Positions 5,941-36,886 of a stretch of DNA of 40,963 nucleotides are shown here, in pieces (the first letter of the stretch is position 1; the number at the start of each line of letters is the position of its first letter). The translations under genes were made by a program, and so were the position numbers. The stretch is from Promethearchaeota archaeon. GTDB taxonomy: Archaea; Asgardarchaeota; Lokiarchaeia; Sigyniarchaeales; SOKP01. Under the pieces are notes generated by a model, which was given only the letters and a program-made list of their open reading frames with translations, ran no database searches and had not been told where the DNA came from. Location: assembly GCA_013375475.1 (NCBI GenBank), contig JABXKD010000029.1:1-40963 (forward strand), given 5' to 3'.

Positions 5941-6366
5941 GTGAATCAAAAGTTGAAAATAGCTATATGTACAGAAATGGGAAGCGTTTCGCAACATTTT
6001 GGTCGAGCTCCGGAATTTACTTTTGTTTCGATTGAAAATAACAAAATAGTTGATAAAAAAGTGTTGAATAACCCTGGACACGAAGTTGGAAGCATACCAA
6101 GGTTTATTAACGATCAAGGTGCGAAATGTATGATTGTGGGTGGAATAGGTCATAGAGCAATTGATTTTTTTAACCAATACGGAATCGAAGTTATCAGAGG
6201 TGTTGTTGGTAACATTGACGATGTTATTGCAAAGGTTTTAAACGGGACATTAGAAGGTGGTGAAAACATTTGTTCTCCGGGTGGAGGTAAAGGTTATGGT
6301 GTAGAAAAAATACACACTGAGGCAGACGAAAATTACGAACATAATCATCATAACCATCAGCATTAG
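5941..6366 (+). CDS. NifB/NifX family protein with His-rich C-terminus
   Basis: VSQHFGRAPEF, NPGH, MIVGGIG, GTL motifs; tail EHNHHNHQH. Confidence 0.9.
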   Translation: MNQKLKIAICTEMGSVSQHFGRAPEFTFVSIENNKIVDKKVLNNPGHEVGSIPRFINDQGAKCMIVGGIGHRAIDFFNQYGIEVIRGVVGNIDDVIAKVLNGTLEGGENICSPGGGKGYGVEKIHTEADENYEHNHHNHQH

Positions 6367-6440
6367 CTGAATAACTCAAATATTTGAACAATTAAATTTT
6401 CTAGCAACTATATTAAAATCAAAAATAGTATTCCATACAG

Positions 6441-6899
6441 ATGCCTAAAGATAAGTTTGATGAATATGTAGAGAATCTTCAAAACATTATTTACGAAGAA
6501 GAAATCAAGGAATATAATGAACGCATAGTTTCATTATATCACAAGCCTAAAAACTGGGGTAAACCTCCTGATGATGAGATTACGATTTCAAAAACTTACG
6601 AGGGCCCTTGTGGTGATACCATGTCATTCTTTTTAAAAATAAAGGACAATAATATTGAAAAGGCTAACTTTCTTACTGACGGTTGTGGAGCTTCAGTGGC
6701 AACAGGGTGCCAAACTACACTTCTTATAGAAAACAAATCAGTAGATGATGCTGAAAAATTAGATGCAGAAGACATAGACGCTGCGTTAAACGGTTTACCC
6801 GAAGATCACAAACATTGCGCCGAACTGGCGATAACAACCCTAAAAAGAGCGATAGATGATTATCACATATCAGTAAGGTTTAAAAAAATAAAGAACTAA
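6441..6899 (+). CDS. IscU/NifU-N family Fe-S scaffold protein
   Basis: PKNWG, GPCGD, DGCGAS and LPEDHKHCAELA provide the three conserved Cys. Confidence 0.92.
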   Translation: MPKDKFDEYVENLQNIIYEEEIKEYNERIVSLYHKPKNWGKPPDDEITISKTYEGPCGDTMSFFLKIKDNNIEKANFLTDGCGASVATGCQTTLLIENKSVDDAEKLDAEDIDAALNGLPEDHKHCAELAITTLKRAIDDYHISVRFKKIKN

Positions 6900-6956
6900 A
6901 ATCAAGAGATTCTGGATTTTGCTTTTAAAAATAAGTTTCTTTTATACTAAGGGAAA

Positions 6957-7889
6957 ATGAAATATGTTTATGGACCTGTTCCTAGCAGACGATTAGGGAG
7001 GTCTTTAGGAATTGACCCTATTCCTTCAAAAACATGCGATTATCAGTGTATATATTGTCAATTGGGAAAAACGACTAATTTTACTAGTGAGAGAAAAAAT
7101 TTTTATCCCTTAGAAGAAATTTACGAAGAAATTGAACAAAGTATTAACAAAAATAAAGGGGAGTTTGATTACATAACCTTTGTAGGTAGTGGTGAACCTA
7201 CCTTATGCAAAAGTTTAGGAAAACTGATTTTGAAAGCAAAGGAATTATCTAAAAAACCGATTTGTGTAATTACTAATGGTAGTTTATTATACCAAGACGA
7301 TGTAAAGGATGATCTTATCTTTTCTGACGTTGTTTTACCAACATTAGACGCAGGAGATGAAAAATTATTCATTAAAATTAATCGTCCTCATCCCTCCATC
7401 AAATATGAAAAAATAATTCAGGGTTACATTGATTTTCGGAAAGAATTTAACGGTAAATTTTGGATAGAAATAATGGTAATGAAGGGAATTAACGATTCTA
7501 GGGAAGAGTTATTTAAGATTAAAAAGAAGATAGATTTGATTCAACCCGATAGAATTGATATTAATGTTCCAATAAGACCTCCTACTGAAAGTTGGGTGAA
7601 AATTCCCGACCAAGATGTAATACCAATCCTAAACGATATTTTTGGAGATTATAATAATATAAACTTTCCTGAACAAGGAACATTTAGTGTTTTTGGTTTA
7701 AATTTTGAAAAGGAATTAAAGACTTTACTTGAAAGGCATCCAATGAGACTAGAACAAATTACTGAAACATTTAGTTCAAAAGCGGTTAATGAGCAAGATT
7801 TATTAGATCAATTGAATACTCTAGCATCCCAGAATAAGATTAAAAAAGTAATTTACAATAACCAGACTTTTTGGAAATTAACTAATTAA
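6957..7889 (+). CDS. Radical SAM Fe-S oxidoreductase (COG0731-like), possible C-terminal winged helix
   Basis: YGPVPSRRLGRSLGID, CDYQCIYC (CxxxCxxC), GSGEPTL, ITNGSLL. Confidence 0.9.
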   Translation: MKYVYGPVPSRRLGRSLGIDPIPSKTCDYQCIYCQLGKTTNFTSERKNFYPLEEIYEEIEQSINKNKGEFDYITFVGSGEPTLCKSLGKLILKAKELSKKPICVITNGSLLYQDDVKDDLIFSDVVLPTLDAGDEKLFIKINRPHPSIKYEKIIQGYIDFRKEFNGKFWIEIMVMKGINDSREELFKIKKKIDLIQPDRIDINVPIRPPTESWVKIPDQDVIPILNDIFGDYNNINFPEQGTFSVFGLNFEKELKTLLERHPMRLEQITETFSSKAVNEQDLLDQLNTLASQNKIKKVIYNNQTFWKLTN

Positions 7890-7910
7890 CCAATAACTCA
7901 ACTATTAGCT

Positions 7911-8402
7911 ATGCCAGTTTGCACGAAATGTAAAAAGGAAAAAGAGTTGCACCACCTTGATAAATTTGATGACAAATTCATATGTTATCAATGTTTATAT
8001 CAGAACAATAAGCCGTTTAAGATCTTTCCAATCGGTTTTGTAGAAAATCTATTAGAACGAGGGGAAGGATTTGGTTTGAAGGGGAGTAGAAATGATGTCT
8101 CTAAAATCCGTCTTTTTGAATCTCAACGACCTTTTCTTTACAAGTTAGAAGAAGATAAATGGATTACTGTTGTATATTATTTTCATAAACAGTGTAAAAT
8201 TCGATCGACCTTTTCTCGAGGTATTGATGGGAAGAAAGTAGGTATTTTCGCTTCTCGGACGCCTAATCGATTATCTCGCATTGGAATTACTAATGTTAAA
8301 TTAGTTAAAATTGAAGATACCACTTTATTCGTCAAAAATCTCGATGCGATTAATGGTACACCAATTCTAGATATTAAATTAGGTTCTAAAACGAGATGGT
8401 AA
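7911..8402 (+). CDS. TrmO/TsaA (YaeB)-like SAM-binding protein with N-terminal zinc finger
   Basis: PIGFV, GIFASRTPNR..RIG, LDAINGTPILDIK; N-terminal CTKC...CYQC. Confidence 0.8.
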   Translation: MPVCTKCKKEKELHHLDKFDDKFICYQCLYQNNKPFKIFPIGFVENLLERGEGFGLKGSRNDVSKIRLFESQRPFLYKLEEDKWITVVYYFHKQCKIRSTFSRGIDGKKVGIFASRTPNRLSRIGITNVKLVKIEDTTLFVKNLDAINGTPILDIKLGSKTRW

Positions 8403-8428: not shown

Positions 8429-8863
8429 CTAAGTTATATTTATATATATATTTGGGATTATTGCATTGTTTGGACAATCCTTAAAACATTTTAAACAATT
8501 ACTACACTTATTCATTGATTTATTATTAAATTCGATGTATTCTTCGTTTGTGCTTGGTTCAACGCAAAGCTTAAATAAATTTTGAAAGCAGAAGTTTGAC
8601 TCTAAACATTTTTTACAAACGGTACATCTCTCCTTATCGATTTCAAAGTCAATTAAACGCCCCTCCTCTAACGAGATTACCACTATAGCGTTGTGCTCGC
8701 AAACATCTACACACTTTAAACATCCTTTACATTTATTATAATCGACATATCGAAGCGAATCCCTAAAAAAGATTGCCTTTGGAGGACAAGAGTAAGAGCA
8801 CTTTTCACAACGGATGCAAAATTGTGGGTTTATACTTATAGGAAATAATTTTTCCGAATGCAT
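8429..8863 (-). CDS. Polyferredoxin, about 4x[4Fe-4S]
   Basis: CIRCEKCSYSCP, CKGCLKCVDVCE, CTVCKKC....FC, CSNCLKCFKDCP. Confidence 0.88.
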   Translation of the reverse strand: MHSEKLFPISINPQFCIRCEKCSYSCPPKAIFFRDSLRYVDYNKCKGCLKCVDVCEHNAIVVISLEEGRLIDFEIDKERCTVCKKCLESNFCFQNLFKLCVEPSTNEEYIEFNNKSMNKCSNCLKCFKDCPNNAIIPNIYINIT

Positions 8864-8884
8864 GTCGTTTTAGTTGATGAAATT

Positions 8885-11284
8885 CTAAAATTTGTTTTCT
8901 AATCTATCTATAATGTCGTTTTGGATTGGAATTCCTAAATCAATAAAAGTAGCGTTATACCCTCCAACTTTCACGATTAAATCTGCGTAATTTTCAGGAT
9001 GGATCTGTGCATCCTTTAAAGTTTCGGTTGAAACCACATTTGGTTGAATCTGCATCCCCCCTTTATCAAAATATGTTTTTAACAAGTAATAGAACTTTTC
9101 GATATTTTCTTGAGTTTCTAAGTTTTGGGGATGTAATCGCACATTAACAGCTACTCCATTCATAGCGTAATCGTAATTTAATTTTGCGATTGAATTCAAT
9201 ATTGCGGTGATTCCGTTCTTTTCAACTTTATTCACGGGAGATAAACTGTTTGAGATGGGTCTTCCTGCTTTTCTCCCATCAGCTGATGGTCGAGTTAAAA
9301 TACCTTCCATTACATGGATGCCCATTGAGTAAGCTCCCGCATTATATCGTCCTCCCCTTAAAGGTTTATTCTTCCTTACCTCTTGTGTAAATAAATCCCA
9401 TAATTCAATAGCAAAGGAATCAATCTCAGCACCATCGTTCCCCCACTTTTCGTAATTATTAATTAATTTTTGGCGGTAAACTTCATTATCTTCAAAGTTT
9501 GAATTGAGAATACTTATAAGATCTGGTAAAGTCATTGACTTTTCGTCGTAAACGACTTTTTTAATGTTATACATAGAATCAACTAAAGTAGCAAACCCAT
9601 AAGCAGTAATCGAAGAATAATTATATTTTGCCCCTCCACATACGTAATCTTTCCCACTTTCCAAGCATCCATCAAGCGTAGCAGACACAATCGGGTGTTG
9701 AAAATAGTTCATCACTACTCTATCCCCTACTTCGGCAATCTTCACAGATTTTTCAATGTTAAATTTAAGCTGCCGTGTAAAAGCGTCGTAAAATTGATCG
9801 TATGTGATAAACTCTCCTGGATTACCTGTCTGTAAACCATCAATATTCTTTGAGAAATTGCTATATCCATTGTTTAAAGTTAATTCTAACACTCCTGGTA
9901 AATTAATGAACATCCTAGCTGTTGCTGAAAAACTGTTTCCTTGACCGGTGGGCTCCACACATCCAATTATAACGTAATTCTGGGCGTCTTCTAGGGAATA
10001 ACCGGTATTTTGAAGCGCGGGAACTATAATTTCATCGTTATAAAAAGCGATACCTGAAGTGTGTTTAAAAACTTTAATCGCGTTTTCAAAGAATTCTCTT
10101 GGAGTTTTCTTATGAATTCTAACTGAAAGATCAGTAGTAAAAACCTTTACTTTCTTATATGCTTCAAGAAAAAGGTAAGATAACTCATTTGTTGCGTCTT
10201 TGCCATTTGAATCCATACCAGCAATAGTAATTGTTTGTGTGTTTTGACCAAGAGCGTTAGCTACTAAAGTAAAGTCTGTAGGTAATATTGTAATGTTCCA
10301 AGTTAATTTTAAATTGAGTTCTTCTATTAATTCTAACGCGTCTTCTCTATCAATTTTCCCGTTTTTAAGATCTTGAAAATAGTAAGGCCAGAGAATTTGA
10401 TCTAATCGACCAAGGGCCACAACACTTCGCTGGTAAGTAATATTTATGATATTTTGAGTAAAATTTATGAGTTGAACTGCCTCGTAAAAAGTTTCTGGGG
10501 TAGTTTCGGTAAGTTTTTTCAACATAGCTCCGATAATTTCAAGCTCTTTTTTCCGTTTTTCGTTGTTTTGAGTTTCTGCCATTTCAAGAGAAAGTGTTGA
10601 AAACCTTTGCAAAAACTCTATAGCAGCTCTGTAATAAATTTTAACAGCTTCGTAGAAGTTATATTTTTCTTGAAATTCTTTATCCACTTTCTCTAAGCGG
10701 GATTGAAATGATTCAGCTTCCTCAATAATTCCTCTATATCCAAGTTTTAAAAGCTTTTCGTAGCCAGCGCATAAATGTCCTTCTGTCGTTCCAATTTGAA
10801 CGGACACATTTGGAGCTAAGGAAGTGATTTTCCCCTCTCCTGTGACCAGTTCTTCTTCCCGTAATTTCTTACTAATACGACCTTCTAATAGCGATTTTTT
10901 TCTCCAAAATGGGATCATTTCGAGTAACTCATCAATCTCCGGCTCGTCGATAAAAAATGGTTGAAGTTTTCTTCTTCTTAGCTTCTTATATGTTGATCTC
11001 TTCTCTAAACTGTTATCATAGCGTTGAAAATCGAGATTGATTTTTTCGCCTAAATTTTTGCTCGTTTCGTTTCCAACCAGTAATTCATCGTCTCTAATAA
11101 AAATGGTCATATTTTTTAGAGTGCGTGCTATAGATTTCGCTCTCTTAATGATTTCGGGATCGTCTGGATATTGTTTATAAATCTCAGTGAAAAATCTCAT
11201 GCGTTCGATACACAATTCATACTTGCTTGATAGCATGTTATTTTTGAGATTATTTATCCGTTTGGAAGGAGTTTTAATAATCAA
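8885..11284 (-). CDS. Glycyl radical enzyme (PFL2/eliminase-like), substrate unknown
   Basis: ELLVG, LGRLDQ, DATNELSY, active-site GCVEP, KWGND, ADGR, LKDAQxHPENYxDLIVKVGGY. Confidence 0.93.
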   Translation of the reverse strand: MIIKTPSKRINNLKNNMLSSKYELCIERMRFFTEIYKQYPDDPEIIKRAKSIARTLKNMTIFIRDDELLVGNETSKNLGEKINLDFQRYDNSLEKRSTYKKLRRRKLQPFFIDEPEIDELLEMIPFWRKKSLLEGRISKKLREEELVTGEGKITSLAPNVSVQIGTTEGHLCAGYEKLLKLGYRGIIEEAESFQSRLEKVDKEFQEKYNFYEAVKIYYRAAIEFLQRFSTLSLEMAETQNNEKRKKELEIIGAMLKKLTETTPETFYEAVQLINFTQNIINITYQRSVVALGRLDQILWPYYFQDLKNGKIDREDALELIEELNLKLTWNITILPTDFTLVANALGQNTQTITIAGMDSNGKDATNELSYLFLEAYKKVKVFTTDLSVRIHKKTPREFFENAIKVFKHTSGIAFYNDEIIVPALQNTGYSLEDAQNYVIIGCVEPTGQGNSFSATARMFINLPGVLELTLNNGYSNFSKNIDGLQTGNPGEFITYDQFYDAFTRQLKFNIEKSVKIAEVGDRVVMNYFQHPIVSATLDGCLESGKDYVCGGAKYNYSSITAYGFATLVDSMYNIKKVVYDEKSMTLPDLISILNSNFEDNEVYRQKLINNYEKWGNDGAEIDSFAIELWDLFTQEVRKNKPLRGGRYNAGAYSMGIHVMEGILTRPSADGRKAGRPISNSLSPVNKVEKNGITAILNSIAKLNYDYAMNGVAVNVRLHPQNLETQENIEKFYYLLKTYFDKGGMQIQPNVVSTETLKDAQIHPENYADLIVKVGGYNATFIDLGIPIQNDIIDRLENKF

Positions 11285-11407: not shown

Positions 11408-12214
11408 ATGAAAGTTAGACTAAACCCAAATACTATTTACCAGAAAATACTCCAGAATAAAATCAACAGGATAGAAGGTATTGAGTTTCTAATTTCGATC
11501 ATAGAGAAATCTGAAAACACGAGCTCGAGGATAGAGAGCTTAAACATTTTAAACAAACTGAAAACTCGAGATCAGATTGTTTTTAGAACACTAGAAAATT
11601 GCATAATTTCTGACGAATATGAAGAGATTAGGATAATTTCCGCTAAAATAATTTTAGAAAATTATTTTAAAGTTGGAGAAAATTGCTTGGAATGGGTTTT
11701 ATTAAACGATAAATCATCAAAATTCCTTAAAGTTCTCGCAAAGTCGTTAAATGATCCAGAAATCGACCACTTCAGGTCTTTATATGCTGTTTATCTTCAA
11801 AGATTAGAGAAAATAGCTGAAAATCTTGATGTTGTGTCCGAGGAAGTTCCGTTCTTATTAGATTTAGAATTTAATCTTGACAATTACAACAGTTTTAATT
11901 GGAATTCAAACAGTAAACTGATCTATGATGACGATGTAATGTTGAAAGTTCAAGACCAACGCATATTGGAATTAAGTATATCTCTAAGAGATCAAATTCC
12001 TTCCTCTATTAAATTATTGAAGAATTTAAAAAATTTGAACCTAAGTTGTAATAATTTAACTAATTTGCCGGATACTTTAAGCGACCTTATAAATCTTGAA
12101 AGTCTAGATTTGAGTTGGAACGACTTTAAAGTAGTTCCAAATGTCTTGAACGAGTTAAAATCGATTAAGAAGATTAATTTTGAAAATAATCTCATTCATA
12201 AATGCCCTAATTGA
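11408..12214 (+). CDS. Helical (HEAT-like) N-terminal domain plus leucine-rich repeat protein
   Basis: LKNLKNLNLSCNNLTNLPDTL, LINLESLDLSWNDF and IKKINFENNLI repeats; ISDEYEEIR helical motif. Confidence 0.85.
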   Translation: MKVRLNPNTIYQKILQNKINRIEGIEFLISIIEKSENTSSRIESLNILNKLKTRDQIVFRTLENCIISDEYEEIRIISAKIILENYFKVGENCLEWVLLNDKSSKFLKVLAKSLNDPEIDHFRSLYAVYLQRLEKIAENLDVVSEEVPFLLDLEFNLDNYNSFNWNSNSKLIYDDDVMLKVQDQRILELSISLRDQIPSSIKLLKNLKNLNLSCNNLTNLPDTLSDLINLESLDLSWNDFKVVPNVLNELKSIKKINFENNLIHKCPN

Positions 12215-14889: not shown

Positions 14890-15029
14890 GTCTCCTTAGG
14901 GAAAGGTGTATTTAAAAGAGATTTAGAATTCTCTTTGATAGTGGGACTGTTAATTACCAATTGTAGATCAGTCTTAAATTATAAATTCAAATGTTGTTTT
15001 ATTACATTATTAGAAGAATTGTGATAAAT

Positions 15030-15884
15030 GTGAATTTTGAGACTATTAACTTTGAGTTAAGAGAAAATGGAATAGGGATACTAACGCTTAATCGTCCCAA
15101 CAAACTAAATGCTATGTCTTTTCAGATGATTAAAGATTTACACGCATTATTTGATTCTTTAATGGTAAATTTAGATTGTCGTGTTGTTATATTAAAAGCA
15201 GAAGGGAAAGCGTTTTGTGCTGGCTTGGATTTGAAAGAATCGACGATTTTGCAATCTAAAAAAAAGCCACCAGAATTGAAAGAAAAGTTCCATTTTCTAA
15301 ACGCTCCCGATAAGGATATTATTAAAGCTAAATTATACGCTCAGTGGTATACCAGTCATATTATCGTAAAAATGCGTAAAATTAGTCAACCAATCATCGC
15401 TTTAATTCAAGGCGCAGCATCTGGAGCTGGTTTCGCATTTTCTTTAGCGGCAGATATTAGGATTGCTAGCAATAACGCAAAGTTTAATAATGCATTTATC
15501 AACGTTGGATTTTCTGGTTCAGACCTAGGATCTAGTTATTATCTTCCTCGACTTATAGGGATGTCAAGAGCAACAGAGATTTTATACACAGGAAGATTTG
15601 TAGATGCTTATGAAGCTGAAAAGATAGGATTAGTATTAAGTGTAGTTGAAGAAGCAAAATTACTTGATACAGCTATTGAACTAGCAGAAAATTTGCTACA
15701 TAAAAGCCCTTTAGGGTTAAGAATGACTAAACAAGCACTCAATTTATCTCTTGATTCTCCAAGTCTAGAAACGATTCTTCAATTAGAAAATCGCGCACAA
15801 ATGCTTTGTTCTGCATCAGATGATATTATGGAAGGAATTCAATCCTTTTTCGAAAAAAGAGACCCAAAATATCCCTTGAGATGA
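15030..15884 (+). CDS. Crotonase superfamily enoyl-CoA hydratase/isomerase (paralog 1)
   Basis: LNRPNKLNA, FCAGLDL, QPIIA, ADIR, LPRLIG. Start moved from 14991 to GTG 15030 by alignment with paralog 2 (xNFETI) and a GTGAT ribosome-binding site. Confidence 0.9.
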   Translation: MNFETINFELRENGIGILTLNRPNKLNAMSFQMIKDLHALFDSLMVNLDCRVVILKAEGKAFCAGLDLKESTILQSKKKPPELKEKFHFLNAPDKDIIKAKLYAQWYTSHIIVKMRKISQPIIALIQGAASGAGFAFSLAADIRIASNNAKFNNAFINVGFSGSDLGSSYYLPRLIGMSRATEILYTGRFVDAYEAEKIGLVLSVVEEAKLLDTAIELAENLLHKSPLGLRMTKQALNLSLDSPSLETILQLENRAQMLCSASDDIMEGIQSFFEKRDPKYPLR

Positions 15885-15917
15885 GAATTAGAACATAAAA
15901 TATCAAATTAAAAATAA

Positions 15918-16772
15918 GTGAAAAAAATGAATTTTGAGACAATAAAATTTGAATTGAAAGAAAATGGGATTGGAATATTATCCCTAAATCGCCCTAACAA
16001 ATTAAATGCAATTAACTTCCAAATGGAACAGGAATTACACGAGGTATTTGACCACCTCACAATGAATTTGGATTGTCGCGTTTTAATTTTAAAGGCTGAA
16101 GGAAGAGCTTTTTGCGCTGGTACTGATTTACAGGAAGGTTTAGTCTTAAACACGAAAAAAATCCCTGAAGGTTATGAGAAATATTACTTTCTAAATACAG
16201 CAGAGCCAATTAAAAAAAAAATGTATCATCAATGGCGGATAAGTTCAATTTACGTAAAAATGCGGAAGATTAGTCAACCAATCATTGCTTTGGTTCACGG
16301 TGGAGCTGCTGGGGGAGGGTTTGGGTTCGCAATGGCTGCAGACTTTCGAATTGTAGCTCCCGATGTTAAATTTATAAACGCCTCAATTAATATTGGTTTA
16401 ACTGGAGCAGATGTAGGAGGTAGCTATTTTCTTCCAAGATTAATTGGATTGTCTAGAGCTTCTGAAATAATGTATACTGGAAGAGATGTGGGAGCTGAAG
16501 AATCGGTAAAAATTGGATTGGCTCTAAGATCCGTTGACTCGAAAGATTTGTTAGAATCCGGGATGGAGCTAGCGAATTTATTGTTAAAAAAAAGCCCCTT
16601 AGGGTTAAGAATGACAAAACAAGCTCTAAATTTAACTCTGGATTCTCCAAGTTTGGAGACTATATGCCAATTGGAAAATGCTAGTATTGTGCTTTCCTTT
16701 AGTTCTAAAGACGTGAACGAAGCCTCGGCAGCGTTTTTCGGCAAAAAAGATCCCAAGTATCCTCTTCGCTAA
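15918..16772 (+). CDS. Crotonase superfamily enoyl-CoA hydratase/isomerase (paralog 2)
   Basis: Same motifs as paralog 1 and collinear with it over the full length; likely start is ATG 15927. Confidence 0.92.
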   Translation: MKKMNFETIKFELKENGIGILSLNRPNKLNAINFQMEQELHEVFDHLTMNLDCRVLILKAEGRAFCAGTDLQEGLVLNTKKIPEGYEKYYFLNTAEPIKKKMYHQWRISSIYVKMRKISQPIIALVHGGAAGGGFGFAMAADFRIVAPDVKFINASINIGLTGADVGGSYFLPRLIGLSRASEIMYTGRDVGAEESVKIGLALRSVDSKDLLESGMELANLLLKKSPLGLRMTKQALNLTLDSPSLETICQLENASIVLSFSSKDVNEASAAFFGKKDPKYPLR

Positions 16773-19873: not shown

Positions 19874-20632
19874 TTAAGCGTCTAAATAGTCATATATTTG
19901 ATCAATCCTGCTATATCCTACAACATCGTCTCTTAAATAGATTTGGAATGGTAAATTCATATTTTTGTAAGGTTTTAGGATATTGAGTAGCGTGATATGC
20001 TCTGGCTTTTGAAACTTCTGTTTATGTTCCTCCCCAACACCTTCAGAATATTGATATTGTTGAAGGACAAAGTTCCCTCGGAACATATTTTTTCTTAGAT
20101 ATGAAATAATCTTATCGATGTCATTAGGTTTCATCAGATTTTCCACATAAGTGGTTCTTATTTCGAAATCAATATCCTCACGATTATTAATAATAATAAA
20201 TGATTCAGAGATAAGATCAGAATCTACTTGATTTCCAGTAATTTTAGCTAGTTTTTTATTATTAAGCGGAGCTTTAATATCTAAAGCAACTCTATTGATG
20301 AATGGGAGTAATTTCGTGATAATTTCCGGATTTGTTCCATTTGTATCTATACTAATATATTTCCCAATATTTTTAATTTCTTCACACAGTTCAAGTAAGT
20401 CGTTTTGAAGCGTAGGTTCTCCTCCAGAAATGCTTACACCACTGACTAACATGTTACTTTTAATTTGCTCCATTAATTTGGGAACATCGATATCTCTACC
20501 CACACCCTCATGAAGTAAATATTTATTGTGGCAAAATCCACAACTTAAATTGCACCCAACTGTGAATATAACCATTGTTGACTTATTAGGGATGTCCTTT
20601 GTTGAAATGTCTATAATTCCACCGACTCTCAT
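19874..20632 (-). CDS. Glycyl-radical activating radical SAM enzyme, NrdG2-type (anaerobic RNR activase-like)
   Basis: MRVGG....STxDxP, FTVGCNLSCGFCHN, ISGGEPTLQ, IDTNGTNP, ALDIKAP, EIRTT. Confidence 0.88.
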   Translation of the reverse strand: MRVGGIIDISTKDIPNKSTMVIFTVGCNLSCGFCHNKYLLHEGVGRDIDVPKLMEQIKSNMLVSGVSISGGEPTLQNDLLELCEEIKNIGKYISIDTNGTNPEIITKLLPFINRVALDIKAPLNNKKLAKITGNQVDSDLISESFIIINNREDIDFEIRTTYVENLMKPNDIDKIISYLRKNMFRGNFVLQQYQYSEGVGEEHKQKFQKPEHITLLNILKPYKNMNLPFQIYLRDDVVGYSRIDQIYDYLDA

Positions 20633-29872: not shown

Positions 29873-32800
29873 TTAATCTTTAAGACCTTTTTCTTCTAGT
29901 AAAGAATCTAAATCTGTCTCTTGTTTGTCTTTTTCCTCGACTTCAGTTTTTTTAGATTTCTTTTTACTTAGTTTTTTAGCTTTCTTAGCTGGAATTTCTT
30001 CTAACTTTTCTTCCGGTTCTTCAGCGGGTAGTTCACTCACCGATACGTATTTCCCTTTTCTTGGTCTGGCTTTTATTGGTTCTTCGAAAGGAGTTTCAAT
30101 TTTCTTGATTGTTTTTCTAACATACATATACATAATTGCCCACACTATCACGAAAATACCAATCATTATTAAAGTAAAAAAGCCGAACACTAAATCTTCA
30201 AGAAGAGGGGCGTAGATGTCAAATATCTTAGAGTTTTGAAAAATTACTTCTTCTTGAGTTACTTCGTTTCTTGCTCCAATAGATACTGAAATGCTCATTT
30301 GATTGATGGTTAGGACATTTATTTTTATCAAAATCTTCGTCGCATCTCCAGGTTTAAATTGTGCTAATGCCAAATAATCTATCTGCACAATACTATAAGT
30401 TAAAGAAGGAGATATATCAATAGAAATATCGGGGATTGACACATTGAGCTCAGAATCACCTACATTAGTTAATAATATCTGTATTGTCGATGGTTTGTTT
30501 TTATAAATCTGATCTACATTCGAAATTATCCGTAATGATATGTTGTTAAATGCTCTAAACATAGGGACAGTAATATTATGCGAAATAGCTGAGGTATATT
30601 GATCCCCTTGCCAGGTTAATCGTAATTTGAACTCATCTTCACTTGGTAACAATAAGGTATCGATTTCAAAATTTGTTGTTCCATTAATACCCGAGATTTG
30701 ACTCGAGAAGTTTTCCCATATGTCATTATTTAAGTATTGGAGTGAAACATTTTTGTTAGGGATTTCAGCGCCAAGCTCAGTAGTTAAAACAGAACTGACA
30801 TTAAATTTTTGCCCGTAAATAGGTGTATTGGGGGCGATATCGATGTTTGAGAATTTACTATTAATTTTCAAGGAGAAGGATTCAATGAATTGATTATAAC
30901 TGCTAACGAAATTTTTATCAAATATATTTATTACAAATGTTGTTTGGTTTGGCAGGTATAAACATTCGTCTCTCTCGAAAGGTTTTAATATTGAAGCTCC
31001 TGTAATGTCTCTGTTTACTTTCAAAGCAATTAAATAGCCTTCAAACTCAGATTGTGTACTATTTATGAGTAAGGCATAATCGTTACTCTCAAAAGTATCA
31101 ACTTTATGACTTTCTCCACCGTATTCAAAGAAAATGGTAAACTTAGTTTTGACTCCTCCTTTTCGTATTGGTGCATTAACACCTTTCCAAATTCCATCTC
31201 CTAAAAGTGTTGGTATTGTAAGATCAACAAAGAAATCCTGCGAATCAGCACCATTAGGATCAATACTAGGTTTTAGTTTTTTAATCCCCGTAGTTTTTTC
31301 AGCAATTATCCATTCTTCATTAACTAAAGATACCAATTGAACTTTGATTTTTACTTTTAATTCGAGAAATCCATGTAAATTACGAATTCGCGTACCAATT
31401 CTAATATCTTCATTAGGGTTCAAGATAGTTTCATTCTGCAAAAAAGTTTCAACTAATATCGGTATTTGTTCATTGTTTATTCTATATATAAATTCTTGAT
31501 CAACACTAGAGTCATTAATGGCGTAAAATTTGGGGTAATACTTATCATCGGTAACATTCACAGAACCTATTAATATTGAATATTCATTGAAGACTCTATC
31601 TACTATTCCATCTAGGACATTTTGGTCGAATTTTGGTTCGTAAAAGAAATCGTTCATCTCGATATCGTAAGTATCGATGTATAACTTAAGCTTACTGCAT
31701 CCAATTGAGGAACCATTTTCCCAGAAGAAACCTAAATAGTAGTTTCCAAGAAGGGGAATATCTTGGGTAACATCTAGAATTGTTTGATTGTTAAAATCAT
31801 ATATAAGATGAGTACCATCGACTACTCCAACTCCAGAATTCATTTCAGCTCCAGGAAATTTGGTGCTATTATCAGGATAAAATAAAATTACATTTGCGTT
31901 TCCCGTAGAAGGTAGTGTACCACCAGGACCTTGAATGTCTAACTTAACAGAGATATTATCTCCATACATGAAACCATTTGTCTCCCATAATATGTCGTTA
32001 TAGTTGATGTAACTATGCATGCCATCAATGAAATTACTACTAGTTAAAGCCAGAGAGTAAATTCCGCTTTTACCATTAATAATGTAATCAGGAACTGCTG
32101 TAAAATCGTAGGAGGGCCTGGAGAGTAAGCTGCGCTCTCCTCCCGTTTTGTTTACAACTTCAGCGTATATATCGTCATAAAAAGGACTAGGATTTGTTAA
32201 ATTGTGCGCATTATAATCGTTCGGATAAACAAACCAAAATTCTTGAAAAGTCCAATCGTTTAAGTTAGCATCTGCAAGGTTTAGCGTGAAATTTAACTGC
32301 CATTCGGGATCAATATCATACGATACATTATAATAACTAATTGCGTTTTCTATCCAATACGCCTTTACAGTATAGCTTACATTGAATTCAAATCCTTTTA
32401 TAATGCTTGTATTCCAAGAAAGGTCAATTGGGAAATTAAACGATCCGTCATTAACTATAGGCGTTGTAAAACTATTATTCCATAGTCCTAAACCCCATGT
32501 TAACGAAGAGCTCTCATCGTAAGGAGGGTCGCTAATAACGCTATTATTTAACGCAATATCTTGGATTCTTAATGTGTCTTGATTATTATAAGGATTTATA
32601 AAGTCTGAAGGCACATATGCCCTAGTTACATTTAATTTAAACGCTGCAGCATCCAATTTTTCTGACTGATAGAGCGGTGACGAGAGTACTTGTTTCTCGG
32701 CGACATTCCACGTAAATCCGTTATTAATAGAAGTTCTTAATTGATGGTCAATTGTCTCCTCGGGATCGCCATAAGTTTGTCTCGGTAGCGTTACTAAGCT

Positions 32801-34078
32801 GTATATTTCTTCAGTACGGTTTGATTTTATTACTATGAAGTAATTGTAAAGTTTTAGATTTTGAGTGTTCGCGAGATTAAATTCGAAGTATGTTAAGGAA
32901 TCTCCATGGTATTCGTTAAAACCAACGATCTTAGAATCGATTAACTTAGCACCATCGGGTTTCAGATTATTTGAAGCTAAATTTGCTTGAGTTCGTGCTA
33001 TAGTATCGTTTGCTTCATACAGCGTTATATTTAATTCTGCATTCACAGCTTCGTTTAGGTCCAAAGTTCTAATCCACGCATAGAAACCGTTTACTGTAGA
33101 ACTTTTACCTTTTAAATCAAACTCTAAAGCCACTTGTTTGCTATCGGAAATTGGTAAGTCAAATCCGTAGTTAGACGCTAGCTCGAATTCTCTTAGCAGA
33201 AGGATAAAATCAGGAGTATCGTATTTTTGGAGGTAAAATTGTATTTGACTAACATCAGAGGTGTTAATGTAGTTTAGATTTTCGTTGACGAATCGGTCTT
33301 CAAACTGTTGAGTACCTAAACTGCTATTTATAAACATCCTATCAGTTACATTTATCCAAGTTGAGTCAGAAATATCTAGCATTTTCAACGTTAAAAAAGC
33401 ACTACTATTAAGGCTACTCGTAAATCTTGAAATTAAACCTAATATTAAGTCTCTATCGAAATTCAAATCGAATAAAGATCCATCATAGATAGTACCAGCA
33501 AAATTTGAGGAAATTGTAAAATTCAGTATACCACCTAAAGATTCTAATTGTATGTAAGTAGCTAAGTTGCCATCGACTAAATCATTAAAATTTTTTGAAG
33601 GAGGTTCAATTCCTGTGTTAACACTCATAGCCGATGTATCTTCATCATAAACAAATTTTATAAAATCATCTGCATACAACGCGTCAGTGTCTTCCATTAT
33701 ATAATCTGTGGTATAATTATTCTGAAATTCGAAGTTAAAATTACCATATGTTAGGTATGTTGTATCTGTAGTTGACATAGAAGGAATGTCAAAAGATGCT
33801 TGATTATTAATGTTAGATGAGGAACTATTTACCGCGTAGATTCTAACATCTTGATTGACTCCTGAACCCGTAATATAGTAATCTGTTAGATACGGGTCAA
33901 TATCAGAAGACTTAATATTATTATCGTCATTTAACCAATTTTGTTCTTGGTTATTACTTATATCAAAATTAAAATTACTAAAAAGCTGAATATTTGCTAA
34001 CAGCATAGAGATCATAAATATGCTGGCCACTACAATTCTTTTAACATCCTTTTTTCGTCGTTGAATCAAAAAAACCAA
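29873..34078 (-). CDS. Large (1401 aa) membrane-anchored surface glycoprotein of unknown function
   Basis: N-terminal signal/TM, Asn/Ser/Thr/aromatic beta-rich ectodomain with many NxS/T sequons, C-terminal TM and Lys/Glu-rich tail. Confidence 0.85.
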   Translation of the reverse strand: MVFLIQRRKKDVKRIVVASIFMISMLLANIQLFSNFNFDISNNQEQNWLNDDNNIKSSDIDPYLTDYYITGSGVNQDVRIYAVNSSSSNINNQASFDIPSMSTTDTTYLTYGNFNFEFQNNYTTDYIMEDTDALYADDFIKFVYDEDTSAMSVNTGIEPPSKNFNDLVDGNLATYIQLESLGGILNFTISSNFAGTIYDGSLFDLNFDRDLILGLISRFTSSLNSSAFLTLKMLDISDSTWINVTDRMFINSSLGTQQFEDRFVNENLNYINTSDVSQIQFYLQKYDTPDFILLLREFELASNYGFDLPISDSKQVALEFDLKGKSSTVNGFYAWIRTLDLNEAVNAELNITLYEANDTIARTQANLASNNLKPDGAKLIDSKIVGFNEYHGDSLTYFEFNLANTQNLKLYNYFIVIKSNRTEEIYSLVTLPRQTYGDPEETIDHQLRTSINNGFTWNVAEKQVLSSPLYQSEKLDAAAFKLNVTRAYVPSDFINPYNNQDTLRIQDIALNNSVISDPPYDESSSLTWGLGLWNNSFTTPIVNDGSFNFPIDLSWNTSIIKGFEFNVSYTVKAYWIENAISYYNVSYDIDPEWQLNFTLNLADANLNDWTFQEFWFVYPNDYNAHNLTNPSPFYDDIYAEVVNKTGGERSLLSRPSYDFTAVPDYIINGKSGIYSLALTSSNFIDGMHSYINYNDILWETNGFMYGDNISVKLDIQGPGGTLPSTGNANVILFYPDNSTKFPGAEMNSGVGVVDGTHLIYDFNNQTILDVTQDIPLLGNYYLGFFWENGSSIGCSKLKLYIDTYDIEMNDFFYEPKFDQNVLDGIVDRVFNEYSILIGSVNVTDDKYYPKFYAINDSSVDQEFIYRINNEQIPILVETFLQNETILNPNEDIRIGTRIRNLHGFLELKVKIKVQLVSLVNEEWIIAEKTTGIKKLKPSIDPNGADSQDFFVDLTIPTLLGDGIWKGVNAPIRKGGVKTKFTIFFEYGGESHKVDTFESNDYALLINSTQSEFEGYLIALKVNRDITGASILKPFERDECLYLPNQTTFVINIFDKNFVSSYNQFIESFSLKINSKFSNIDIAPNTPIYGQKFNVSSVLTTELGAEIPNKNVSLQYLNNDIWENFSSQISGINGTTNFEIDTLLLPSEDEFKLRLTWQGDQYTSAISHNITVPMFRAFNNISLRIISNVDQIYKNKPSTIQILLTNVGDSELNVSIPDISIDISPSLTYSIVQIDYLALAQFKPGDATKILIKINVLTINQMSISVSIGARNEVTQEEVIFQNSKIFDIYAPLLEDLVFGFFTLIMIGIFVIVWAIMYMYVRKTIKKIETPFEEPIKARPRKGKYVSVSELPAEEPEEKLEEIPAKKAKKLSKKKSKKTEVEEKDKQETDLDSLLEEKGLKD

Positions 34079-35701: not shown

Positions 35702-36886
35702 GTGCAAGATTTAGTAAAAATAGAAGACTGCGTAATTCTTATAGATTCCTCAAGATCTATGGTAAGGAAAGATTTCAAACCTAATCGACTAGGAGTTGCA
35801 TTAGAAACCGCAAAAAGGTTTATTCACGAGAAATTCCTAATAGATCCCAAGGATCGTATAGCGATATTCTCGTTTGGGGCAAATATTGCTAAATTGAGCC
35901 CATTTAGTTTCGAAAAAGATAAATTAGTAGAAGCTTTAAGCCGAATTCATATTTCAGGGAAAGGATCGCTTGACGAGGGTCTCGCATTTTCACTTCAATT
36001 TTTAGTTGGAGAGATGCGAAAGTTAGGAGGTAGAACAAGTAGGATTTTCATTATCTCTGACAATAAACTAGAATATAGTGATAAAATCCACAAAATTGTT
36101 GAGATAGCAAAAGGTTTGGGAATTTACATTGACGCGTGTCAATTAGGGAAAACTGAAGACCACTCACAGAGTATCTTAAAAAACCTAGCTAAAAATACTG
36201 GAGGTCAGTATGGTTTTTTTAACAATTCAAAAGCGTTATTAAATGCTGGAGCCTCTTATGCTTCAAAAAAAGAACTTAAAGATTCTACCGATTATTTTGA
36301 TCCTGCTAAAAAAAGCGACATAGCCCCTTTAATTAGCGAGATTGCTTTACAACTTAGGAGACCAAACGTACTCGATATTCGTCTAATGATGAGCAATAAA
36401 GAACGAGGTCAAGAAAAATGTCAAATTTGCCATTCAGTGAAAGCCCAAATTACAGGAGCCGATTTTTATAGCGAGGGACGCTACTGTCCATCTTGTGAGA
36501 GACCAATGCATCTTTCTTGCGTCGCTATGTGGGCAAAGAAGACAGAATATAGGGAAAATGTATTCAGATGTCCATTTTGTTATTTCTTGTTAGAACTCCC
36601 TGCCAGTGCGTCAAAGTTAGTTGAAGAAAAGGTTGAATTAGAAGAGCCTAAAATAAAATTAATTGATGAGAGCGGGATAAATGTCACAAAAATGACTCAA
36701 ATTCAGGAATCTGAAATCGGTAAAATCGACGCTTCATGTACACTTTGCCATAGCATATTTTTAGGCGACTATAACGTATTTCAATGCGATAAATGTGGAG
36801 CGTACTACCACGAACCGTGTTTAAATAAAATGCATAACGAAATCAATGCGTGTAGAAATTGTGGTGCTCAAATCACTTTAAAATAG
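35702..36886 (+). CDS. vWA domain protein with two C-terminal RING/PHD-like zinc fingers (TFIIH p44/Ssl1-like)
   Basis: IDSSRSM...DFKPNRL, DP, TSR, LAKNTGGQY; CQIC..CPSC..H..C..CPFC and CTLC..CDKC..H..C..CRNC. Confidence 0.8.
   Translation: MQDLVKIEDCVILIDSSRSMVRKDFKPNRLGVALETAKRFIHEKFLIDPKDRIAIFSFGANIAKLSPFSFEKDKLVEALSRIHISGKGSLDEGLAFSLQFLVGEMRKLGGRTSRIFIISDNKLEYSDKIHKIVEIAKGLGIYIDACQLGKTEDHSQSILKNLAKNTGGQYGFFNNSKALLNAGASYASKKELKDSTDYFDPAKKSDIAPLISEIALQLRRPNVLDIRLMMSNKERGQEKCQICHSVKAQITGADFYSEGRYCPSCERPMHLSCVAMWAKKTEYRENVFRCPFCYFLLELPASASKLVEEKVELEEPKIKLIDESGINVTKMTQIQESEIGKIDASCTLCHSIFLGDYNVFQCDKCGAYYHEPCLNKMHNEINACRNCGAQITLK

Follow-up and report, generated by a model that had tools for sequence, protein, structure and literature searches.

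A clade of PFL2-like glycyl radical enzymes from one family of Loki-type Asgard archaea, with a facultative ferredoxin neighbour

Background

Glycyl radical enzymes (GREs) share a beta/alpha barrel of 10 strands and, at the C-terminus, a glycyl radical domain, and pyruvate formate-lyase (PFL) requires an adjacent pair of Cys residues on its Cys loop. Here we describe a gene for a GRE, followed by a gene for a small polyferredoxin, in a 40,963 nucleotide stretch of a Promethearchaeota archaeon genome (GenBank assembly GCA_013375475.1, contig JABXKD010000029.1, positions 1 to 40,963; "the window"). An initial annotation, made from the sequence alone, had proposed a new GRE class with a non-canonical radical loop and a ferredoxin partner. 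We computed the fold, motifs, conservation and distribution of the enzyme, searched for activases encoded in trans, and followed the ferredoxin through related loci.

Several described systems resemble this locus. The best match in both sequence and structure is the B12-independent glycerol dehydratase (GD) DhaB1 of Clostridium butyricum (1r8w/1r9d). In a 2026 review, GD Glu435 deprotonates the substrate hydroxyl, His164 protonates the leaving hydroxyl, and the Cys-x-Glu (CXE) motif is common to 1,2-eliminases and isomerases (PMC13450708). The 1,2-propanediol dehydratases (PDs; Roseburia inulinivorans 5i2a/5i2g, and 9rco-9rcr) come second and third among the matches and have CXE and the His in common with the query. 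The (2S)-3-sulfopropanediol dehydratase HpfG (NF048009) is an eliminase acting on an anionic diol, like the substrate proposed below, and gives the best-scoring equivalog model; it was compared by model score only. Among archaeal PFL-like GREs only Archaeoglobus fulgidus PFL2/PflD (2f3o) has a solved structure; it matches at full length with 371 bits, weaker than the bacterial diol dehydratases and at Foldseek rank 19, a comparison of score and rank only. Its function is still debated according to the same review, in which function-assigned PFL-like GREs are all bacterial and archaeal clades are an explicit gap (PMC13450708). Small Fe-S proteins encoded with a GRE, as in the window, are known as accessory subunits (HPAD gamma; BSS beta/gamma; MASS beta/gamma/delta); these resemble HiPIP or rubredoxin, and solubility or activity depends on them (PMC13450708, section 4.2). 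The locus described here differs from DhaB1 in its changed pocket, its KVGGY rather than RVAGY loop, the lack of an adjacent activase, and its archaeal host.

Identification of the enzyme

The GRE gene begins with TTG, and the 799 residue translation of 8885-11284 (minus strand) holds the KVGGY loop and all the strings from which the initial annotation had argued: TEGH, YQRSVV, NALGQNT, GCVEP, SATARMF, AYSMG and LIVKVGGYNATF. Its main features are listed below; A1 is an alignment of the query's clade made from 17 close homologues, and A3 a broader alignment of 125 sequences.

8885-11284, minus strand: GRE, 799 aa, PFL2/eliminase-like (open reading frame (ORF) translation; Pfam, PDB, AlphaFold2 (AF2)/Foldseek)
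8957-8971, minus strand: Gly loop K772-V-G-G775-Y776, with the G775 codon at 8960-8962 (alignment with the glycerol dehydratase RVAGY loop)
9950-9964, minus strand: Cys loop G-C442-V-E444-P, the CXE motif (aligned to C433/E435 of 1r8w; invariant in A1)
10775-10777, minus strand: His170 of TEGH (counterpart of GD His164; invariant in A1)
10427-10429, minus strand: Arg286 of YQRSV, a clade-specific invariant (beside the positions aligned to GD His281/Ser282)
9914-9916, minus strand: Arg457 of ATARMF, a clade-specific invariant (aligned to GD Ser448, next to Asp447, which is Ala in the query)

Membership in the superfamily is clear from both sequence and predicted fold. Pfam matches to PFL-like (PF02901, 1.2e-170) and Gly_radical (PF01228, 1.1e-27) both exceed their cut-offs, and the best solved relative is 1r8w (E 4.1e-132, 445.1 bits, full length), followed in sequence and fold by the propanediol dehydratases 9rco and 5i2a at 30-32% identity. 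An AF2 model built from A3 has a pLDDT of 93.6 and a pTM of 0.94, and it replaced an earlier model from the shallow A1 (pLDDT 51.3), which was discarded. Superposed on 1r8w by Foldseek, the model gives TM scores of 0.94/0.96 and a root-mean-square deviation of 1.7 Å at 33% identity, and query-normalised TM scores against the solved GREs listed range from 0.85 to 0.95, so that the barrel and the C-terminal glycyl radical domain are both accounted for.

No functional model claims the enzyme. In an NCBIfam scan it reached no equivalog cut-off (HpfG 513.7 against 1000, about half; HypD 456.5 against 1100; CutC 440.3 against 1050; HpsG 439.5 against 1000), and it falls below the cut-off of the nearest model as well, TIGR01774 for the PFL2/glycerol dehydratase family (616.7 against 678.2). 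A protein atlas search returned generic GRE clusters only. The gene product is a real, conserved and uncharacterised member of a known enzyme kind. The reading we favour, with moderate confidence, is that it is a functional GRE of the PFL2 branch (1,2-eliminases/isomerases), belonging to a paralogue clade limited to one GTDB family of Loki-type Asgard archaea.

Distribution and published labels

The phylum was sampled with 301 genomes, among which the window's GTDB family counts 68 besides the window's own. Matches of at least 63% identity are confined to this family, occurring in 48 of the 68 genomes; identity within the clade is 63-93% across genera, and the next best matches outside it are at most 45% identical. 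Among 1.84 billion representatives the clade appears as one full-length cluster (66%) and one fragment, the next match being 42% identical, and of the 60 nearest representatives scanned, not one scores as high as an equivalog cut-off. In a 148-leaf tree the clade nests in an 18-leaf group of uncharacterised GREs with support of 0.945 (FastTree, SH-like) and 98 (IQ-TREE, SH-aLRT). The proposed new GRE class holds as an uncharacterised clade without an equivalog, whose closest relatives outside it are no more than 42-45% identical; the kind of enzyme is a known one.

The window's genome encodes three further full-length GREs with canonical loops (RIAGY, RVAGY and RITGY), 28-40% identical to the query. 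Separately, a tandem array of three GRE genes was seen in a genome of the same family (G207:C26:203533-211170), every one of them sharing about 40% identity with the query.

Source names of homologues include Promethearchaeota/Lokiarchaeota, other Asgard labels, some Hermodarchaeota and some 'formate C-acetyltransferase'. The last of these names, and the 2-oxoacid-formate lyases invoked in a cultured Asgard archaeon (PMC7015854), would favour a pyruvate or 2-oxoacid formate-lyase. We find this barely credible: the query has a single Cys followed by x-Glu (GCVEP) in place of the adjacent Cys pair, as the initial annotation had observed and the alignment of C442/E444 with C433/E435 of 1r8w bears out, its TIGR01255 score is 128.4 bits against a cut-off of 994.2, and PFL structures reach only about 105 bits.

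A second published label, alkyl- or benzylsuccinate synthase (Ass/Bss), was given to GREs of Asgard 'Hermodarchaeota' from 29-33% identity together with a single Cys (PMC8163825), and some homologues of the query carry that lineage name. For the present clade this assignment is highly improbable. X-succinate synthases score 235.6 bits (9o8u) and 207.2 bits (4pkc), against 445.1 for 1r8w, and rank 45th and 50th in Foldseek; the GD-type His and CXE are kept; two Arg predicted to lie in the pocket would suit a hydrocarbon substrate poorly; and no small-subunit gene was noticed in the 36 related loci inspected, although no search was aimed at them. Because of the single Cys, the CXE-His set and the ranking of matches, neither published label would fit the clade.

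Literature on Asgard glycyl radical enzymes and Lokiarchaeota PFL gave no account of the clade or of Lys-type loops, supplements lying outside the scope and figures in PMC8163825 possibly showing the loop unremarked. Likewise, among the matches listed for the strings KVGGY, KVSGY and KVAGY, no paper was on a GRE by its title.

The radical loop

The GRE fingerprint given in the review is RVxG[FWY]x6-8[FL]x4Qx2[IV]x2R (PMC13450708). The query reads KVGGY-NATFID-L-GIPI-Q-ND-I-ID-R (window 8903-8971), so that taken strictly the fingerprint fails at its first residue, Lys in place of Arg, and every other position fits. In each of the five solved GREs aligned, the radical Gly (within RVAGY or RVAGF) lines up with G775, which never varies in A1 and is kept in at least 90% of A3. 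Since KVGGY and GCVEP occur together in 121 of 121 sequences (the query and 120 homologues of 69-90% identity, among the matches listed), these features are not due to chance, and KVGGY is also found in all 35 related loci that include the GRE C-terminus.

Lys at this position is not peculiar to the clade. In 143 non-clade GRE sequences the column holds Arg 129 times, Lys 13 times and a gap once; in the best 150 representatives at 50% identity, Lys occurs in 17 and KVGG[YF] in 5. Parsimony on the 148-leaf tree needs at least 8 switches between Arg and Lys. Within the 18-leaf group, 11 leaves have Lys, in loops of the form KV[SG]G[YF], and the others RVSGY or RVSGF, one leaf lacking the C-terminus. 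Since Lys recurs in other GREs and has switched so often, it is best regarded as a conservative, tolerated and recurrent variant and not as a new cofactor site. The loop described as non-canonical by the initial annotation does carry Lys for Arg; it is a mild variant, neither unique nor accompanied by other departures from the fingerprint.

A different substitution was seen elsewhere in the family: Thr or Ala replaces the radical Gly in 9 of 142 GRE sequences with a readable loop (RVSTY, RVATW, RVAAY; for example P0196, P0201, P0202 and P0160), matching published aminoacyl radical enzymes.

Active site and predicted substrate pocket

Pairwise alignment with 1r8w by HMMER separates a conserved catalytic set from an altered pocket. 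Retained are C442/E444 (C433/E435 in 1r8w), H170 (H164), Y652 (Y640) and Q350 (Q340), C442 being invariant throughout A3. Both the CXE motif and the general-acid His of GD/PD-type eliminases are thus present. Altered are G280/H281/S282, which become R286/S287/V288; Y339, which becomes T349; and D447/S448, which become A456/R457. These changes include all five of the positions that we take to be the substrate contacts of GD, H281, S282, Y339, D447 and S448, which read S, V, T, A and R in the query. Where the propanediol dehydratases have GHS and HDA, the query has RSV and ARM. The GD/PD substrate-contact residues are accordingly missing, and at aligned positions the pocket is unlike those of glycerol/propanediol dehydratase, a CutC-type choline lyase and YbiW; the impression of an unfamiliar pocket in the initial annotation was well founded.

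The predicted catalytic apparatus of a C-O cleaving eliminase is therefore in place, and the residues that would hold the substrate are the clade's own. Because the five substrate-contact positions have changed, the substrate is predicted to be something other than glycerol or propanediol.

Arg residues had already been taken as a hint of an anionic substrate, and two that are both invariant and clade-specific were found: R286 and R457 occur only in the 5 clade rows of 22 compared, and in none of the 17 rows from neighbouring clades or paralogues. In A1, which has a mean column identity of 81%, they are as invariant as H170, C442, E444 and G775. We infer from the alignment that both may line the cavity. 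C-S lyases hold their sulfonate by a two-Arg anchor (PMC13450708), and by analogy the two added Arg make an anionic substrate (carboxylate, phosphate or sulfonate) plausible. Taken together, these features suggest a 1,2-eliminase or isomerase-type enzyme for an anionic hydroxylated substrate.

The same departures could be read as decay, with Lys772, Gly774 and the other changes marking a non-radical or catalytically dead homologue. Besides the departure from the RVxG fingerprint and the score below the TIGR01774 cut-off, 21 of 170 columns conserved across GREs are consistently different (139 are kept), including the widespread GATPDGR, TRPSADGR in the query, which becomes TRP[ST]ADGR in the clade only (5 of 22 rows, with TQP or TRA in two of the five). 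We nevertheless consider a dead enzyme very unlikely. No variation is seen at the radical Gly or at the catalytic Cys, Glu and His, the clade is strongly conserved across genera with its loop intact in every sequence, Lys loops recur in many other GRE clades, and a radical can be borne even where Thr, Ser or Ala replaces the Gly (PMC13450708).

Activases

GREs of this lineage lack neighbouring activases as a rule. None of the four full-length GRE genes in the window's genome has an adjacent activase, and an activase is absent from 36 of 36 related loci; because of this the activase-less locus is a habit of the lineage, the arrangement of all its GREs. Two genes of the same genome, on contigs C177 and C22, do exceed the TIGR02494 GRE-activase cut-off, with 354.4 and 317.5 bits. 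Both carry a ferredoxin-like insert and neither adjoins a GRE gene, and at least one activase-like gene is found in 90 of 100 family genomes. The initial annotation was thus right that no activase lies beside the gene; its reading of the ferredoxin as the enzyme's only partner gives way to a genome-wide trait with two activases on other contigs.

Three attempts to single out an activase failed. Co-occurrence is not discriminating, with 1-6 paralogues per genome and close orthologues of the C177 gene in 2 genomes only. The 310 aa radical SAM protein at 6957-7889, which has CxxxCxxC near its N-terminus, matches no equivalog as a dedicated activase, scores 32.9 bits to PFLA, and is missing together with its TrmO-like neighbour from three loci (L014, L017 and L027), the pair behaving as an indel cassette. 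The radical SAM gene at 19874-20632 (minus strand) belongs to the NrdG2 equivalog (157.6 against 131.15), and NrdD is encoded in the genome.

Two details of these genes may be recorded. NrdD (G000 contig C211:33699-36872) is a single 1189 aa open frame; its Pfam match falls into two separate parts, a sign of a possible intein. The activase locus on C22 (G000:C22:48720-52162; L058) lies two genes upstream of a sulfatase gene and not beside a GRE.

The downstream ferredoxin

The second gene of the presumed pair is the following.

8429-8863, minus strand: polyferredoxin P0002, 144 aa, with four [4Fe-4S]-type motifs CxxCxxCx3-5C (Fer4-family matches)

It follows the GRE stop codon by exactly 21 nt to its ATG, as first described, and the two genes are probably co-transcribed in this sublineage. 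In 33 of the 36 related loci the sequence continues for 4 kb or more beyond the GRE, and these loci are informative about what lies directly downstream and co-directional with it:

Full-length P0002-type polyferredoxin: 5 of 33 loci
P0002-type protein, first dicluster half only: 2 of 33 loci
365 aa protein with a C-terminal dicluster domain: 2 of 33 loci
EFR1-type flavodoxin-ferredoxin: 2 of 33 loci
No Fe-S gene: 22 of 33 loci

A P0002-type gene therefore follows the GRE in 7 loci, only behind GREs at least 83% identical to the query, and a homologue is found in none of the 20 more distant loci. Orthologues with 62-64% identity exist in two genomes (G276 and G171) unlinked to the GRE, tens of kb away or on another contig. 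The copy in G276 lies 89 kb from the GRE among three Nitro_FeMo-Co genes, a pair of MinD/NUBPL ATPases carrying Fer4 inserts and an OsmC-like gene, and P0002 paralogues adjoin SufBD/ABC genes. One genome estimated as 100% complete (G147) has the GRE and no full-length P0002-type gene. Because it is present in 7 of 33 loci and its orthologues sit elsewhere, in Fe-S/NifX-like clusters away from the GRE, the polyferredoxin is a facultative and evolutionarily young neighbour and not a required partner. The simplest reading is a recent juxtaposition of ferredoxin and GRE, giving co-transcription in one sublineage.

The principal competing explanation holds that the ferredoxin, and the unrelated Fe-S and flavodoxin-ferredoxin proteins in the same slot, are true partners of the GRE, the ferredoxin serving as a dedicated low-potential electron donor to the activase or as a new, ferredoxin-type accessory subunit with a role like that of HPAD gamma or BSS beta/gamma. 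Where the ferredoxin is present, the tight gap of 20-27 nt is conserved in 7 of 7 loci, and each of the 6 full-length copies retains the complete set of 16 cluster Cys. Moreover, Fe-S proteins of three unrelated, non-orthologous forms occupy the slot in 11 of 33 loci, against a background of 100 in 3712 ORFs of the genome (2.7%) that carry two or more such Fe-S motifs; for this reason an electron-carrier link is kept as the main rival, and precedent for Fe-S subunits of GREs exists (PMC13450708). We rate it as a minority possibility, since such a gene is lacking from 22 loci, the ferredoxin is reduced to its first dicluster half in two close relatives and missing from two more, and the orthologues are unlinked as described. 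A consistently co-encoded subunit of the HPAD/BSS kind is not what we found, and this clostridial-type four-motif ferredoxin, absent from most clade members, differs from the HiPIP-like and rubredoxin-like subunits of the review (PMC13450708).

A complex prediction for the GRE and the ferredoxin scored 0.00 against a mark of 0.32 and counts neither way. A string in the ferredoxin, 'LCVEP', that could be taken for an echo of the GRE Cys loop is not conserved and is attributed to chance. On balance the coupling proposed by the initial annotation is weak, and the ferredoxin itself looks dispensable.

Proposed mechanism

A canonical ferredoxin-insert activase encoded elsewhere in the genome would take a hydrogen from Gly775 of the KVGGY loop, and the radical would move from Gly775 to Cys442. 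The Cys442 thiyl would then take a hydrogen from a hydroxylated substrate whose hydroxyl is held by Glu444, and His170 would protonate the oxygen leaving group, as has been proposed for glycerol dehydratase, the outcome being a dehydration or a C-O cleaving isomerisation.

Favouring this functional PFL2-branch enzyme must be tempered by several points that weigh against it. The two activases are available in trans, and their pairing with the GRE is only an inference; at E<=1e-30 no activase was matched in one genome that encodes the GRE (G222, 89% complete). Lys at the start of the loop is not seen in any of the five solved GREs aligned, and Lys772 and Gly774 may affect how an activase recognises the enzyme. 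The pocket positions were read by eye from a sequence alignment and not from coordinates. Finally, the co-directional Fe-S genes in a third of the informative loci exceed their background, as would be expected from a real connection to electron carriers, which the favoured reading takes to be optional.

A bolder combination of these observations, which we consider improbable, is an archaeal GRE served by ferredoxin, in which a low-potential Fe-S carrier was recruited three times (polyferredoxin, dicluster-domain protein, flavodoxin-ferredoxin fusion) as a dedicated reductant to install, re-install or quench the radical on the Lys-type loop, and in which the GRE acts on an anionic metabolite as a radical dehydratase or isomerase of a new type, its product passing to the conserved crotonase and acyl-CoA genes nearby. 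If true, Lokiarchaeia would have a route of catabolism that bacteria are not seen to use. Under the favoured PFL2-branch reading as well, the identity of the substrate would correct models of carbon flow for Lokiarchaeia, which are abundant in sediment, and finding it would also test whether the Lys-type Gly loop is activated normally.

Genomic neighbourhood

Two further groups of genes in the window bear on the setting of the enzyme.

5941-8402, plus strand: Fe-S-related block of Nitro_FeMo-Co, NifU-like, 310 aa radical SAM and TrmO_N-like genes, converging on the ferredoxin
14991-16772, plus strand: two crotonase-family (enoyl-CoA hydratase/isomerase) genes (Pfam ECH_1, 6.3e-54 and 5.4e-44)

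The Fe-S block, which also includes an iron-dependent repressor family gene and DUF5320, resembles the modules that house ferredoxin orthologues in other genera, and the ferredoxin of the window stands exactly between it and the GRE. In one related locus (L033) a homologue of the radical SAM gene and a NifU-like gene are co-directional downstream of the GRE.

Crotonase-family genes are the most persistent neighbours of the clade: of 16 close loci, 11 have one to three of them upstream of and divergent from the GRE and 5 are truncated by a contig end, and upstream copies also occur in 14 of 20 distant loci. The crotonases and the GRE may be linked functionally. Together with the acyl-CoA dehydrogenase, thioesterase and amino-acid permease genes near the GRE in the window, they hint at a catabolic setting and name no substrate.

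Three other genes of the window deserve mention. The gene for a 268 aa leucine-rich-repeat protein (11408-12214, plus strand) is divergent from the GRE, and close relatives conserve this neighbour. A 1401 aa ORF (29873-34078, minus strand) has no Pfam match at E<=1e-4. The product of 35702-36886 (plus strand) joins a VWA/Ssl1-like domain to PHD-like and RING-like zinc fingers, a eukaryote-like combination.

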